Origin: Escherichia coli
GTDB lineage: Bacteria > Pseudomonadota > Gammaproteobacteria > Enterobacterales > Enterobacteriaceae
Assembly (NCBI RefSeq): GCF_013315695.1
Contig: NZ_CP054353.1
DNA: 64,000 bases
Reading direction: 5' to 3' (one strand)
This document shows positions 21,920 to 38,557 of this stretch, piece after piece. The position numbers were made by a program, and so were the translations under genes. The notes under the pieces were generated by a model. That model ran no database searches, was not told where the DNA came from, and worked only from the letters and a program-made list of their open reading frames with translations. Within the stretch, counting starts at the first letter, position 1. Each line of letters opens with the position of its first letter.

Positions 21920-23405
21920 TCAGAACTTCTGTTTTTTCTCTTCCACCTTCACCCCTTGTGTCGGTAGGCCGGTGTCATAGTCGCGTACCACTGGCGAATA
22001 GCCATCTTGTGGGCGTGGACGAAACGCCCCCATCCAGCGCGGTCGTGCATCTTTACGCCACGGACGCAGACTCCACTGGTAACTGCGGAACGGATCGCGA
22101 ATTTTATCCATGTAATCCAATAAGGCGTCATGCATTTTGCGGCGAACGTCGGCAAAACGGATATCATCTATCAGGTTATGCATTTCATTTGAATCATTAC
22201 GGCGATCGTAAAGTTCATCACTGGTGAAGAGGTTGAGCACCAGTTTAAAGTCATCCGTCACCCAGCAACGCACCGGAATAAAACCGCCAAAGCTGTCATG
22301 CTCAATCTCGTAGCGGTTAAATTCCACCATTACACCGCGTGGCTCTTTCACGGCAAGGATATTTTCCCCCGGCAGAATCTCTGGTTTTTCAATATCTGCC
22401 AGCGCCATCATTGTCGGCAGTAAATCGATATGACTGACTGGCGTATCGACCTGTCGCCGCTCCCCTTGCGGCGAACGGATGATCAGCGGAATGCGGGTGA
22501 TGTCGTCATACATCGCCGCTCCTTTACTGATCAGCTTATGTGCGCCCATCATTTCGCCGTGATCGGAGGTATAAATGACCCACGTATTTTCACGTTGCTC
22601 TGACGTTAAGGCATTGATGACCCGTCCGATTTGGTCATCAACAAAGTCATTGCAGGCAAAATAGAGCGGATGGTGATAAAGCCCGTCATCACCGACTGGC
22701 GATGGCATCGCCTGCGCCCATAAGCGGTGATGTTCCGGTTTGTTCGCCAGGTCATCCTGTGATTTCTCGCCAAGTTCGTAGTAAAAATCAGCGTATTTCT
22801 CTAAATACTCCACCGGACAGGTGAACGGGTGATGCGGCTCATCATACGAAACCACCATCAGGAAGGGTTCCTCGGCGCGCGCGGGCTGTTGCAGAAAATC
22901 TACCGCCCGATTGCTGATGCGGTGCGCCCAGGTGAAGGTTTCGTCGATATGGTTCGCCTGTAAATCCTCAACGCTGTTTAGGCCATTGCGCCACAGGCTG
23001 ATCTCTTTTTCCGTCAGTTCGCTAAGGTAGTTCGCCCCATCGAACCAGTAATCAGCGTCCCACTCCGGCGGACACTCGCCAGTGCCGAAATAGTCATGAC
23101 CGTCGAGATGCCATTTGCCGATGTAACAGGTGTGATAGCCCGCATCCTTAAAGTAGCGTCCCATAGTGGAGATGTTTTTGCCCGGCGCGACGTTGTTGGT
23201 CCACGGGCCGGACTGGTTAGCGTAGATACCGGTAAACAGCCCGGCGCGCGCTGGTGTACAAACCGGTGAACAGGTGTAGGCGGAATTAAAGCGAATACTT
23301 TCCACTATCAATATTTTGCGTATTCAGCGGCTTACCGCTATAGCAACCGACCATATTGGTGGCCTGGGTATCGGTCATGATGAACAGAAAATTGGGGCGT
23401 TTCAT
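21920..23405 (-). pseudogene. yidJ: Sulfatase YidJ, reading frame interrupted near 23286-23311
   Basis: ATG at 23405 (ATGA overlap with yidK stop) opens a 39-codon frame MKRPNFLFIMTDTQATNMVGCYSGKPLNTQNIDSGKYSL* with a sulfatase N-terminus; the rest of the sulfatase (ESIRFNSAYTCSPVCTPARAG..., C-x-P-x-R signature) continues in another frame to 21920. Confidence 0.6.
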
Positions 23406-29407: not shown

Positions 29408-29695
29408 ATGATCTACAAAAGCATTGCGGAGCGGTTAAGAATTCGACTTAACTCCGCGGATTTCACGCTAAACAGCCTTCTTCCCGGTGAAAAAAAGCTG
29501 GCGGAAGAGTTTGCGGTATCGCGGATGACCATCCGTAAAGACATTGACCTGCTGGTAGCGTGGGGGCTGGTGGTCCGCCGCCACGGTAGCGGCACTTACC
29601 TGGTGCGCAAAGATGTACTGCATCAAACCGCCAGCCTGACCGGGCTGGTGGAGGTGTTAAAACGCCAGGGAAAAACGGTCACCAGCCAGGTGTAA
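29408..29695 (+). pseudogene. yidP: GntR-family regulator YidP, 5' fragment truncated by IS4
   Basis: MIYKSIAERLRIRLNSADFTLNSLLPGEKKLAEEFAVSRMTIRKDIDLL... (GntR winged HTH) ends after about 96 codons at a stop supplied by the IS4 terminus. Confidence 0.8.
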
Positions 29696-31118
29696 TGCCA
29701 GTCAGTTAAGCAACTGACTGGCTCTTTTTCGGGGCTGTGGGGTATTTCCAGGGCCTCTCCTTTACCACTCTCGGGAAGGCCCTTTCCCTTCTTGTCGGTA
29801 ATTTCACAAGTTGTCCCATACTTGCAAGATCGCGCATCAGCTCCGGTATACGTCCCGGTGAAGCGCCCTGCAATGTCATCAGCATTCTCATCACCATTCC
29901 GCATGATTCTGAGAAACTCAGTTGATTCGGCCAGTAACCTTTCAGATGTTCCGCCATTTTAATCATCTGATATCTCACCAGATTATAAGCCAGTAAGACA
30001 CCCCACAGCTCTTGCTCCACAAGCTCCGGTTTTTTACTTCTCAGCGTCAGCCTGCTCAGTTGCATCGTCTGTTTTATCTCCCTGTATCCCAGTTCGATTT
30101 CCCAGCGATGACTGTACAGATCCGCCATTTCTCCTCCGGGGAAGCGCATGGCGTCCGTCATCGACGTCAGCAGATGGCAGACTTTTCCTTTGCGCGTCAC
30201 GGTCAGCAGGCGGGCTGTCACTTCATTTCCCAGTCCCGGCCACTTTTTTCGTGCCTGCGGGCTGGTTTTCAGCTTCACCAGATGATCGCCTTTACCCAGT
30301 TTTCTGATCTCTTCATATTGCGCTCCCTTTCTGAGAGGTATCATCCAGTGGCGGTGTTCTCCCGCCAGGCTCCAGGCATTTAACAGTCCCAGTGAGTAAT
30401 AACCTTTATCCATTAACGTCAGAGTGTTATCGCCGGTTTGTTCTATAAGTTGCTCAGCAAGCTCATTTTCGCTGTTCTTCATCGTGCCGAAGGCTGCAGC
30501 CGTCAGCAGATGGCTGGTCAGTTCCATCTGGCAGACCATTTTGACCTGCGGGTAGAGCGCCGGGTTCCCGGCATGTGTCTGGCGGGGGAAGGCTGCATCG
30601 TTCTCTGGTGTATCCGGTGTGCGCCAGAACACACCATCGATGGCCAGCAGGGTCAGGCCGCACCAGTGCGGATGCGGCGTGGCGTTATGCCAGAGCTGCG
30701 CTGTTTTCGTGAACACGCGGCGGACAGCCTCACTTCCCAGGCGCTGGCGGGCCTGAATAACGGCACTGGGGGCAACGAAGGGGCGATTGCCCGGCAGCAT
30801 GATGTCCAGGCGATTCACAATCTGGTGAAGAGGTTCTTTACGCTCAAGCGCCATGCCAACAATACACCAGACCATCATTTCGAGGGGAAGACGGCGCTTG
30901 CGTAGCGTTACAGTACCTGATTCGGCAAGGCAACGAGAGATGAGTTCGGGGTCGAGGTAATCCCCCAGAGAAGTCAGTGGGTTACGCAGAGAATCGTAAC
31001 GGGATACCAGATCAAGAGCCTGTCCAATGTGCATAAAAAAATCCGGAAACAAGTGAGCGTTTCCGGATTCTTACACAGCCACTGGATCGGTCAACTGATC
31101 CTTAACTGATCGGCATTA
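29693..31118 (-). mobile_element. Insertion sequence IS4 (1426 bp)
   Basis: Terminal inverted repeats TAATGCCAGTCAGTTAAG (29693) and TAATGCCGATCAGTTAAG (reverse complement, ending 31118); encloses the IS4 transposase; flanking sequences ACCAGCCAGGTG and CCCCCCTTTGAG are not a direct duplication. Confidence 0.9.
29706..31034 (-). CDS. insG: IS4 transposase
   Basis: Translation [41 protein letters not shown]... recognised as IS4 transposase (DDE family), about 442 aa. Confidence 0.9.
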
Positions 31119-31207
31119 CCCCCCTTTGAGACTATTTTAGCCACCAGCAAGAAACGTCTATACTCGCAATTTACGCAGAACTTTTGACGAAAGGACGCCA
31201 CTTCATT

Positions 31208-32704
31208 ATGGCTCACCCTCATTTATTAGCGGAAAGAATTTCCCGCCTGAGCAGTTCGTTGGAAAAGGGGCTTTATGAACGTAGCCACGCCATCCGCTTG
31301 TGTTTATTAGCGGCATTAAGTGGTGAAAGTGTGTTCCTCCTTGGCCCGCCAGGTATTGCCAAAAGTTTGATCGCCCGGCGCTTAAAATTCGCCTTTCAGA
31401 ATGCCCGCGCGTTTGAATATCTGATGACTCGCTTCTCCACGCCGGAAGAGGTTTTTGGTCCCCTTTCTATTCAGGCGCTAAAAGATGAAGGGCGCTATGA
31501 ACGTTTAACCAGCGGTTACCTGCCGGAAGCAGAAATCGTCTTTCTGGATGAGATCTGGAAAGCGGGTCCGGCAATTCTTAATACCCTGCTCACCGCCATT
31601 AACGAGCGCCAGTTCCGCAACGGTGCACACGTAGAAAAAATCCCGATGCGCCTGCTGGTGGCGGCCTCCAACGAGCTGCCGGAAGCAGACAGCAGTCTGG
31701 AAGCGTTATATGACCGCATGCTGATTCGTCTGTGGTTAGATAAAGTGCAGGATAAAGCGAATTTCCGCTCCATGCTGACCAGTAAACAGGATGAAAACGA
31801 CAATCCGGTTCCTGCCTCCTTGCAGGTCACAGATGAAGAATATGAACGCTGGCAGAAAGAGATTGGTGAAATTACGCTGCCCGATCATGTATTTGAGCTG
31901 ATTTTTATGCTGCGCCAGCAACTGGATAAATTACCGGATGCGCCTTATGTCTCGGATCGTCGCTGGAAAAAAGCGATTCGATTATTGCAGGCCAGCGCCT
32001 TTTTTAGCGGTCGCAGTGCTGTTGCCCCGGTTGATCTCATTTTGCTGAAAGATTGCCTGTGGTATGACGCGCAAAGCCTGAATTTGATACAACAACAAAT
32101 CGATGTATTGATGACCGGTCATGCCTGGCAACAGCAAGGGATGTTGACCCGCCTGGGCGCGATTGTGCAACGTCACCTGCAACTACAGCAGCAACAAAGC
32201 GATAAAACAGCCTTAACGGTAATTCGTCTGGGCGGCATTTTCAGCCGTCGTCAGCAGTATCAACTCCCTGTTAACGTTACTGCTTCCACTCTGACTCTGC
32301 TGCTGCAAAAACCGTTAAAACTGCATGATATGGAAGTGGTTCATATCACCTTTGAGCGTAGCGCGCTGGAACAGTGGCTGAGCAAAGGTGGTGAAATTCG
32401 CGGCAAACTAAACGGTATCGGCTTTGCCCAGAAACTGAATCTGGAAGTTGATAGCACCCAACATCTTGTTGTACGCGATGTAAGTTTACAAGGCAGTACG
32501 CTGGCACTTCCCGGTTCATCGGCTGAAGGTCTGCCAGGTGAAATAAAACAACAACTGGAAGAGCTTGAAAGCGACTGGCGCAAGCAACACGCTTTATTCA
32601 GCGAACAGCAAAAATGTCTGTTTATCCCTGGCGACTGGTTAGGTCGCATTGAAGCCAGCCTACAGGATGTCGGTGCACAGATTCGCCAGGCGCAACAATG
32701 CTAA
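31208..32704 (+). CDS. ravA: AAA+ MoxR-family ATPase RavA
   Basis: Translation [31 protein letters not shown]..., Walker [11 protein letters not shown]; start at 31208 (ORF-track 31184 rejected). Confidence 0.9.
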
Positions 32705-36289: not shown

Positions 36290-36303
36290 GTATACAGATC
36301 GTG

Positions 36304-36579
36304 CGATCCACTGTGGATAACTCTGTCAGGAAGCTTGGATCAACCGGTAGTTATCCAAAGAACAACGGTTGTTCAGTTTTTGAGTTGTGTATAACCCCTC
36401 ATTCTGATCCCAGCTTATACTGTCCAGGATCACCGATCATTCACAGTTAATGATCCTTTCCAGGTTGTTGATCTTAAAAGCCGGATCCTTGTTATCCACA
36501 GGGCAGTGCGATCCTAATAAGAGATCACAATAGAACAGATCTCTAAATAAATAGATCTTCTTTTTAACACCCAGGATCC
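36304..36579. other. oriC: Chromosomal replication origin oriC
   Basis: Between mioC and mnmG: DnaA boxes TGTGGATAA (36312-36320) and TTATCCACA (36488-36496), dense GATC (Dam/SeqA) sites, and three AT-rich 13-mers (CTAATAAGAGATC, AATAGAACAGATC, AAATAAATAGATC) forming the unwinding element at 36510-36560. Confidence 0.9.
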
Positions 36580-36667
36580 CAGGTCTTTCTCAAGCCGACA
36601 AAGTTGAGTAGAATCCACGGCCCGGGCTTCAATCCATTTTCATACCGCGTTATGCGAGGCAATCACC

Positions 36668-38557
36668 ATGTTTTATCCGGATCCTTTTGACGTCATCATC
36701 ATTGGCGGGGGTCATGCAGGCACCGAGGCCGCGATGGCCGCGGCGCGTATGGGTCAACAGACTCTGCTTTTGACACACAATATCGACACTCTGGGGCAGA
36801 TGAGCTGCAACCCGGCGATCGGCGGTATTGGGAAGGGACATCTGGTAAAAGAAGTGGATGCACTCGGCGGTCTGATGGCGAAAGCGATCGATCAGGCGGG
36901 TATCCAGTTTAGGATACTAAACGCAAGCAAAGGACCGGCGGTTCGCGCTACCCGAGCTCAGGCAGATCGTGTGCTCTACCGTCAGGCGGTACGTACGGCG
37001 CTGGAGAACCAACCGAACCTGATGATCTTCCAGCAGGCGGTTGAAGATCTTATTGTCGAAAACGATCGCGTGGTCGGTGCCGTTACCCAAATGGGACTGA
37101 AGTTCCGTGCCAAAGCTGTCGTGCTCACCGTTGGAACGTTCCTCGACGGTAAAATTCATATCGGTCTGGATAATTACAGCGGTGGCCGTGCTGGTGATCC
37201 GCCGTCCATTCCGCTTTCTCGCCGTTTGCGTGAACTGCCGCTGCGCGTTGGTCGTCTGAAAACCGGGACACCACCGCGTATTGATGCTCGAACCATCGAC
37301 TTTAGCGTACTGGCGCAACAGCATGGCGATAACCCAATGCCGGTATTCTCGTTTATGGGCAATGCGTCCCAGCATCCCCAGCAGGTGCCGTGTTATATCA
37401 CTCATACCAACGAGAAAACCCATGATGTGATCCGCAGTAACCTCGATCGTAGCCCAATGTACGCAGGGGTGATCGAAGGTGTCGGCCCACGCTACTGCCC
37501 GTCGATCGAAGACAAAGTCATGCGCTTCGCCGACAGAAATCAGCATCAGATCTTCCTTGAACCGGAAGGGCTGACCTCAAACGAAATTTATCCGAACGGT
37601 ATCTCCACCAGCCTGCCGTTCGATGTGCAGATGCAAATCGTCCGCTCCATGCAGGGGATGGAAAACGCAAAGATCGTGCGTCCGGGTTATGCCATTGAGT
37701 ATGACTTCTTCGATCCACGCGACCTGAAACCGACGCTGGAGAGCAAGTTTATCCAGGGGCTGTTCTTTGCTGGTCAGATTAACGGCACTACCGGTTACGA
37801 AGAAGCCGCTGCGCAAGGTTTGCTGGCTGGTCTTAACGCTGCCCGTCTGTCTGCTGACAAAGAAGGTTGGGCTCCGGCGCGTTCTCAGGCGTATCTCGGC
37901 GTACTGGTTGATGACCTGTGCACTTTAGGAACCAAAGAACCGTATCGTATGTTTACTTCGCGCGCAGAATATCGTCTGATGCTGCGCGAAGATAATGCGG
38001 ATCTGCGTTTGACTGAAATCGGTCGTGAACTGGGCCTGGTGGATGACGAACGTTGGGCGCGCTTTAACGAGAAACTTGAGAATATCGAGCGTGAGCGTCA
38101 GCGTCTGAAATCGACCTGGGTAACCCCGTCGGCGGAAGCTGCAGCCGACGTGAATGCTCACCTGACTGCGCCACTTTCCCGTGAAGCCAGTGGTGAAGAT
38201 CTGCTGCGTCGTCCGGAAATGACTTATGAAAAATTAACCACGCTGACGCCGTTTTCCCCTGCGTTGACAGACGAACAGGCGGCGGAACAGGTTGAGATTC
38301 AGGTTAAATACGAAGGTTATATCGCGCGCCAGCAAGATGAGATCGAAAAGCAACTGCGTAACGAGAACACCCTGCTACCAGCAACGCTGGATTACCGCCA
38401 GGTATCCGGTCTTTCTAACGAAGTGATCGCCAAACTTAACGATCACAAACCGGCCTCTATCGGTCAGGCTTCGCGTATTTCTGGCGTCACGCCTGCGGCC
38501 ATCTCCATTCTGCTGGTGTGGCTGAAAAAACAGGGTATGCTGCGTCGTAGCGCATAA
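36668..38557 (+). CDS. mnmG: tRNA uridine 5-carboxymethylaminomethyl modification enzyme MnmG (GidA)
   Basis: 629 aa, FAD-binding motif [16 protein letters not shown], recognised as MnmG. Confidence 0.95.

Follow-up and report, generated by a model that had tools for sequence, protein, structure and literature searches.

A yidP-IS4-ravA junction in Escherichia coli as the probable product of an inversion between two IS4 copies enclosing oriC and dnaA

Introduction

The stretch of Escherichia coli DNA analysed here (64,000 nucleotides, hereafter the window) contains a yidP gene that is interrupted by IS4 and is followed, on the other side of the element, by the region upstream of ravA. Gene order ascends in the K-12 sense up to IS4 and descends from there on, and the question raised by this locus is how the two sides came to be joined. 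An initial annotation, made from the sequence of the window, had proposed recombination between two copies of IS4 as the origin of the junction, with inversion of a segment of 60–65 kb including oriC and presumably dnaA.

Expansion of insertion sequences in IS-rich Shigella and Escherichia gives many substrates for recombination, and many breaks of synteny are located at IS copies (Touchon et al., 2009, PMC2617782); the genome of S. flexneri 5b is a case of IS-driven genome shuffling (PMC1550401). Inversion by homologous recombination between IS copies is already well known, and what is described here is a new, well-supported instance rather than a new mechanism.

Results

The IS4 element and its flanking sequences

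The features at the junction are as follows.

29408–29695, plus strand: truncated yidP, encoding a GntR-family regulator; 95 codons, HTH domain only
29680–29692: left flank CACCAGCCAGGTG, read as one copy of the 13-bp duplication from an ancestral yidP::IS4 insertion
29693–31118, minus strand: IS4, intact, 1,426 bp, the putative recombinant copy with hybrid flanks
29706–31052, minus strand: IS4 DDE transposase ORF, 448 codons when started at TTG, 442 aa with the ATG start of the gene call
31119–31130: right flank CCCCCCTTTGAG, read as one copy of the 12-bp duplication from an ancestral IS4 insertion between kup and ravA
31208–32704, plus strand: ravA, its ATG start separated from the right IS4 end by 89 bp

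The initial annotation had placed an intact IS4 at 29693–31118, cutting yidP and abutting the upstream region of ravA, and this placement is confirmed; yidP is cut after codon 95, where the annotation had given about 96 codons, and the distance to ravA is 89 bp. The TAA stop codon of the truncated yidP is formed by the first three bases of IS4. In RefSeq the truncated product is labelled 'GntR family transcriptional regulator, missing C-terminus', and its precomputed Pfam assignment is PF00392.

The element ends in imperfect terminal inverted repeats of 18 bp (29693–29710 and 31101–31118, matching at 16 of 18 positions), and its terminal sequences are TAATGCCAGTCAGTTAAG and TAATGCCGATCAGTTAAG. 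The transposase ORF scores 304 bits against the NCBIfam model NF033592 (transpos_IS4_1, IS4 family transposase), for which the cut-off is 115, and matches Pfam families PF13006 and PF01609; the identical sequence in relatives is named 'IS4-like element IS4 family transposase' in RefSeq. A single DDE transposase, a length of ~1.4 kb and 18-bp imperfect inverted repeats, characters of IS4 as the type element of its family, are all found in the window copy, and the fourth, a target-site duplication of 11–13 bp, is found at the parental copies in related genomes (13 bp in yidP and 12 bp between kup and ravA). The window copy itself lacks a target-site duplication, its left flank CACCAGCCAGGTG (13 bp) being unrelated to its right flank CCCCCCTTTGAG (12 bp), as is expected for a recombinant copy; the absence of duplicated flanks had been pointed out in the initial annotation.

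Gene content and orientation on either side of IS4

The nearest complete genomes are those of strains MSB1_4I (NZ_LR898874.1) and AF3 (NZ_OZ547117.1), each 100.0% identical to the window over 24–25 kb on each side. Gene names in the window were transferred from the annotation of the near-identical MSB1_4I, and two segments are distinguished.

1–29692: non-inverted flank, in ascending K-12 order; 100.0% identical to MSB1_4I over 1–24000, on the minus strand of that record
31119–64000: visible part of the putative inverted block, in descending K-12 order; 32.9 kb, or 46% of 71.6 kb

The left segment comprises iatC (partial), nepI, a relE/parE pair, yicN, adeQ, adeD, uhpTCBA, a low-GC island, ilvNB, tisB, emrD, yidFGHI, yidJ (frameshifted in the window), yidK, yidL, glv and the 5' part of yidP. 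The right segment comprises ravA, viaA, asnA, asnC, mioC, oriC, mnmG, rsmG, atpIBEFHAGDC, glmU, glmS, lpfABCD-O113, pstSCAB, phoU and a low-GC gene resembling those of T3 effectors. The gene annotation thus bears out the ascending and descending orders that had been described, to which the lpf-O113 fimbrial operon, located between glmS and pstS in the window, has to be added.

Compared with MSB1_4I, the right segment is again 100.0% identical, in this case on the plus strand and hence opposite to the strand matched by the left flank. The two halves of the window likewise map to opposite strands of AF3, and this opposite-strand mapping is direct sequence evidence of a relative inversion.

Parental insertions in close relatives

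In both MSB1_4I and AF3, yidP is cut by a simple insertion of IS4 with CACCAGCCAGGTG (13 bp) at both ends, and a second IS4 lies between kup and ravA with CCCCCCTTTGAG (12 bp) at both ends. The 12-bp duplication of the kup-ravA copy is also intact around IS4 in AF14, and the 13-bp duplication of the yidP copy likewise encloses the element in further genomes. In MSB1_4I and AF3 the transposase genes of the two copies lie on different strands, so that the two IS4 copies form inverted repeats; in MSB1_4I they are spaced 71,613 bp apart, with oriC and dnaA between them. Beyond the end of the window, the block continues in the relatives with tnaCA, mnmE, yidC, rnpA, rpmH, dnaA, dnaN, recF, gyrB, dgo, ibpAB, yidE and the 3' part of yidP, an order that places dnaA inside the block, as had been presumed. 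The inverted segment with oriC that had been proposed is therefore upheld as an inversion, whereas its size is corrected from 60–65 kb to the measured 71.6 kb.

The two insertions differ in distribution. Altogether 36 complete genomes, among them the distant IAI39 and CE10, carry the IS4 between kup and ravA, which is an old insertion. The yidP::IS4 junction is found in only 2 of 5,426 complete RefSeq E. coli genomes. Truncated YidP occurs in 1,431 blocks of a large public collection. The clone to which these genomes belong carries ~18 copies of IS4.

Hybrid flanks and the reciprocal junction

The window IS4 combines the left half of the duplication of the yidP copy with the right half of the duplication of the kup-ravA copy. 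One duplication half from each parental copy is what a reciprocal recombination inside two inverted IS copies would produce. The window IS4 does not differ in sequence from either parental copy of MSB1_4I; a search for SNPs between these two parental copies found none, and because the parental copies in the closest relative are identical, the crossover point cannot be mapped.

A junction of the window type is present in 0 of 5,426 complete RefSeq E. coli genomes when queried with 3 kb across the junction at a coverage of at least 80%, and the arrangement is rare among finished genomes. It was found by exact-match look-up with the 95-aa truncated YidP in GCA_964055605.1, whose 5.18-Mb contig CAXKQU010000001.1 carries yidP5'-IS4-ravA-viaA-asnA-asnC-mioC-mnmG as in the window (locus L006). 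The kup-IS4-yidP3' junction of the window's own genome lies outside the window, and the reciprocal junction was therefore read in this close relative: a look-up with the 138-aa C-terminal fragment of YidP identified rbsRKBCAD-kup-IS4-yidP3'-yidE-ibpBA on the same contig (locus L014). Here the flanks of IS4 are swapped with respect to the window, CCCCCCTTTGAG being next to kup and CACCAGCCAGGTG next to yidP3', and the two IS4 copies are 71,612 bp apart, compared with the parental spacing of 71,613 bp in MSB1_4I. The expectation of a second IS4 between kup and the 3' part of yidP is thus borne out in a relative, including the complementary halves of both duplications. Three more contigs were grouped by the look-ups with L006 as similar neighbourhoods, and two more with L014.

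Over 20 kb the window differs from GCA_964055605.1 by four SNPs and one 8-bp deletion, indicating that these are independent assemblies with the same junction. The deletion is the frameshift in yidJ and is private to the window. In exact-match look-ups with products of the frameshifted gene, the 463-aa product from TTG had no record, and the 414-aa and 461-aa products were present only on contigs of at most 50 kb, from short-read or metagenome data, that break off at the IS4.

The replication origin within the block

The origin is found close to the IS4 junction.

~36290–36580, minus strand (reverse complement of the K-12 orientation): oriC, between mioC and mnmG, 5.2 kb from IS4

The oriC region contains two perfect TTATCCACA boxes (DnaA boxes) and 14 GATC sites within 290 bp; nowhere else in the window are such sites so dense. 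The cumulative G-C curve reaches its minimum at 36700, by oriC, and GC skew, followed across the junction, is negative on the left of oriC (-0.041 and -0.012) and positive on the right (+0.051). The origin thus lies inside the inverted block and the polarity of strand composition around it is preserved, as in an inversion that spans the origin. A GC-skew plot had been suggested as a check on the inversion, but the profile is the same in both arrangements: since an inversion that includes the origin preserves the polarity of the skew, GC skew is not diagnostic here.

Consequences for the chromosome

The effect on the replichores was calculated on the MSB1_4I backbone as a stand-in for the window's own genome. 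With dif at 2,583,938–2,583,965, the replichores of MSB1_4I are 2,630,010 and 2,648,123 bp long, a difference of 18 kb. In MSB1_4I oriC lies 5.3 kb within the block as counted from its ravA end; by calculation, inversion places it 5.3 kb within the block as counted from the yidP end and so displaces it by 61.0 kb. The replichores would then be ~2,569 and ~2,709 kb long and differ by 140 kb, or 2.7% of the genome. Because oriC lies inside the inversion, the genes of the block keep their orientation relative to the replication forks; for example, the atp operon remains co-directional and ravA-viaA remains head-on. Of the two effects that had been foreseen, the shift in replichore balance is therefore real but small, and the preservation of gene orientation holds as proposed.

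The junctions between the flanks and the ends of IS4 are unaltered, and hence neither local promoters nor gene context change and local expression is expected to be the same in both arrangements. For the same reason the two arrangements look alike to short reads. Growth of E. coli is reported to be affected little or not at all by replichore imbalances below about 10% (PMC4173774), and with an imbalance of 2.7% the inversion is probably close to neutral in its effect on fitness.

Other IS4 exchanges in related genomes

A second type of exchange is found in GCA_964046385.1, in which yidP5'-IS4 leads into the uvrD side and corA-IS4 into yidP3' (loci L010 and L018), the two junctions being 144,765 bp apart. 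The partner here is an IS4 in a phosphodiester-glycosidase gene located between corA and uvrD, and its 12-bp duplication CAGCAGAAGGTG is split between the L010 and L018 junctions. In AF3 the IS4 in this gene is a simple insertion, in the inverted orientation required. The corA-side junction of GCA_964046385.1 recurs on a scaffold of GCA_000408405.1 (locus L020). In IAI39 (NC_011750.1) the halves of the phosphodiester-glycosidase gene are joined through IS4 to ygcG and eno, and an IS4 sits between ygcG and eno.

A contig on which yidP3' is joined to an lptFG/integrase region (L021) was considered as a third rearrangement; its IS4 is truncated and matches at 97.6% with 12 gaps, and it was treated as a low-quality assembly.

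Within oriC, position 36568 is C in the window and in the un-inverted MSB1_4I, and T in AF3, AF14 and the inverted GCA_964055605.1.

Discussion

Origin of the junction

The evidence presented here makes it very probable that homologous recombination between two older, inverted copies of IS4 flipped a 71.6-kb block with oriC and dnaA. The ancestor would have belonged to an IS4-rich clone of E. coli with ~18 copies of the element, and two independent insertions would have provided the substrates, one in yidP, duplicating 13 bp, and one in the kup-ravA spacer, duplicating 12 bp. The latter copy would have been placed 89 bp upstream of ravA, in the opposite orientation to the yidP copy and 71.6 kb away from it. 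General homologous recombination, presumably RecA-dependent, between these identical inverted repeats of 1,426 bp would then flip the intervening block and leave two hybrid IS4 copies, one in the yidP5'-IS4-ravA junction of the window and the other in a kup-IS4-yidP3' junction expected ~38.7 kb beyond the right end of the window. The initial proposal of recombination between two IS4 copies is in keeping with the parental insertions and their duplications in MSB1_4I and AF3 and with the hybrid flanks in the window. The reading of the locus as an IS4-mediated inversion is thus supported, with corrections concerning the size of the block, the lpf operon and the use of GC skew.

Three other explanations have to be weighed against such an exchange. 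The real genome might have the MSB1_4I arrangement, with the wrong flanks joined in assembly across a multi-copy element of 1.4 kb. The ~18 identical IS4 copies in the clone would favour such an error, as would the fact that each flank/IS-end junction is the same in both arrangements, so that only reads spanning 1.4 kb discriminate between them, and the junction is found in none of the 5,426 complete RefSeq genomes. A closed chromosome would, however, require reciprocal wrong joins at both IS4 copies, and in the independent assembly GCA_964055605.1 the two reciprocal junctions share a 5.18-Mb contig and are spaced exactly as expected, with further contigs having similar neighbourhoods; an artefact is accordingly considered very unlikely. 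It is also conceivable that a real junction stems from a more complex or a different rearrangement, such as nested inversions with a third IS4 or a translocation. With ~18 copies available, another IS4 might in principle adjoin the far end of the block, and other exchanges anchored at yidP::IS4 occur in the clone (the 144.8-kb inversion, and the noisy contig L021), in addition to the IS4-IS4 exchange in IAI39. The visible 32.9 kb of the block is nevertheless perfectly colinear with the relatives, and the simple reciprocal product is found in a close relative, which makes a more complex history improbable.

The intact transposase ORF of IS4 raises the further alternative that the junction was made directly by intramolecular transposition, given that IS transposition within one molecule can generate adjacent inversions and deletions. 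In the nearest relatives, however, each of the two sites is already occupied by a simple insertion whose duplication is intact, and the kup-ravA insertion is shared by the 36 complete genomes that include the distant IAI39 and CE10. Moreover, the recombinant copies hold exactly one half of each old duplication and no new duplication is present at them. Judged from these sequences, an inversion made by the transposase is unlikely, and the chance that this particular junction arose in that way appears to be almost negligible.

Relation to known inversions

Homologous exchange between inverted IS4 copies, as favoured here, resembles the inversions found in the E. coli long-term evolution experiment (Raeside et al., 2014, PMC4173774), which likewise occurred between oppositely oriented copies of one IS and changed the symmetry of oriC and dif. 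Those inversions involved mainly IS1 or IS150, whereas the present one involves IS4 in natural clinical and commensal isolates and encloses both oriC and dnaA. At 71.6 kb the block is also small, and oriC divides it very unevenly, into arms of 5.3 and 66.3 kb.

A classic origin-spanning case is the inversion between rrnD and rrnE around oriC in E. coli K-12 strain W3110, reportedly described by Hill and Harnish in 1981. Inverted repeats enclose the origin in that case as well and gene orientation relative to the forks is kept, but the repeats are rRNA operons and the inversion is roughly symmetric and extends over several hundred kb, in contrast to the asymmetric 71.6 kb between 1.4-kb IS4 copies described here. 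The clone also differs from IS-shuffled Shigella, having only ~18 copies of IS4 and a chromosome that is otherwise colinear, with events that are few, clean and reciprocal. A search of the literature on IS4 or IS inversions at oriC or at replichores in Escherichia coli, and on MSB1_4I, returned the general phenomenon only, with this specific inversion not described.

The value of the present case is that the parental state, both reciprocal products and the swapped duplications of a natural inversion with oriC and dnaA are all available in public genomes. The inversion escapes short-read assemblies, and it displaces the origin by 61 kb while gene orientation stays as it was. Taken with the other inversions anchored at yidP::IS4, it shows that a modest expansion of IS4 suffices for structural polymorphism of the origin region inside a single clone.

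Possible recurrence

What is somewhat novel here is only that inversions spanning the origin seem to have recurred at one copy of IS4 in a single clone. Recombination might take place repeatedly, and perhaps reversibly, at the yidP::IS4 copy, located ~66 kb from oriC, so that in one human-associated clone this copy would act as a hub for several inversions around the origin: one of 71.6 kb with the kup-ravA copy, one of 144.8 kb with the copy between corA and uvrD, and possibly others. The 71.6-kb state would then be homoplastic; this broader proposal is put forward only tentatively and is, on the sequences at hand, rather doubtful. If the C at position 36568 is a single derived mutation, its distribution would imply that the inversion state is homoplastic, through either recurrence or reversal, and this single site is a weak hint of such homoplasy. 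Should the proposal be correct, the clone would offer a natural series of oriC repositionings in which the cost of replichore imbalance and of origin context could be measured.

The IS4-IS4 exchange in IAI39 shares with the 144.8-kb event both the element and the partner site next to corA. It differs in having another second partner at a much larger distance, and yidP is not involved.

Other IS4 rearrangements in the clone and its relatives

Another origin-spanning inversion, of 144,765 bp, is found in the clone (GCA_964046385.1, looked-up loci L010 and L018; also GCA_000408405.1, locus L020). This inversion links the IS4 inserted in yidP with an IS4 in a phosphodiester-glycosidase gene between corA and uvrD, and the 12-bp duplication CAGCAGAAGGTG is divided reciprocally across both of its junctions, at which the following IS4 copies lie.

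L010 10286-11711: IS4 at an inversion junction, GCA_964046385.1
L018 8547-9972: IS4 at an inversion junction, GCA_964046385.1

The target sites of the two insertions look similar, GTCACCAGCCAGGTG in yidP (window 29678-29692) and GGTCAGCAGAAGGTG in the glycosidase gene (L018 8532-8546), which is consistent with a target-sequence preference of IS4.

The same glycosidase gene is interrupted by IS4 in IAI39 (NC_011750.1), where its halves are separated by 255 kb (loci L026 and L027, at 3,076,6xx and 3,332,3xx, respectively) and IS4 connects them to ygcG and eno, two genes that neighbour each other in K-12. IAI39 is a published reference genome, and its arrangement is a further exchange between IS4 copies. 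At L021 8816-9972, a locus of GCA_964044285.1, the 3' part of yidP is linked via IS4 to an island that carries an integrase and DUF8370 and adjoins lptFG. The IS4 copy there is 5'-truncated and error-rich (97.6% identity, 12 gaps), and the junction could represent either a third rearrangement or poor assembly.

Insertions observed in MSB1_4I

In MSB1_4I an autotransporter gene is interrupted by IS4 merely 2.2 kb from dif, and therefore the clone has IS4 recombination substrates beside both the origin and the terminus. The dgoD and tnaB genes are broken in this clone by IS1 insertions, as seen in MSB1_4I, and both fall in the inverted block, past the end of the window.

L025 16120-17545 (record 2,586,120-2,587,545): IS4 in the autotransporter gene
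Record 2,583,938-2,583,965: dif
L024 10633-12558: IS1-disrupted dgoD
L023 25605-27629: IS1-disrupted tnaB

Sequence variation in oriC and yidJ

At position 36568, on the AT-rich left margin of oriC, the window and MSB1_4I have C, and AF3, AF14, and GCA_964055605.1 have T, which is the K-12 state. It is the sole site in the compared regions at which the window shares a non-K-12 state with just one relative, and its C places the inverted window together with the un-inverted MSB1_4I.

An 8-bp deletion (GCCGCCAG) at window 23303, absent from every relative compared, lies in the following gene.

21920-23405, minus strand: yidJ, sulfatase-like

The deletion shifts the reading frame about 34 codons into the gene, giving products of 39 and 461 amino acids. 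Because the exact 461-residue product is found on 19 short-read or metagenome contigs, the deletion is a genuine allele rather than a sequencing error.

Islands and additional genes in the window

The lpfABCD-O113 long polar fimbria operon, missing from the gene list of the initial annotation, is inserted at 50766-55748, between glmS and pstS. A low-GC island (GC ∼0.34-0.36) with three hypothetical genes lies between uhpA and ilvN (12544-15549). Following phoU, where K-12 has the bgl operon, is a low-GC type III effector-like gene (61005-63505). A poly-A tract close to the 5' end (61081-61089) marks the point at which this gene is broken. The window carries A9 at this tract, against A8 in MSB1_4I and A7 in AF3, differences that could reflect slipped-strand variation or homopolymer sequencing error.
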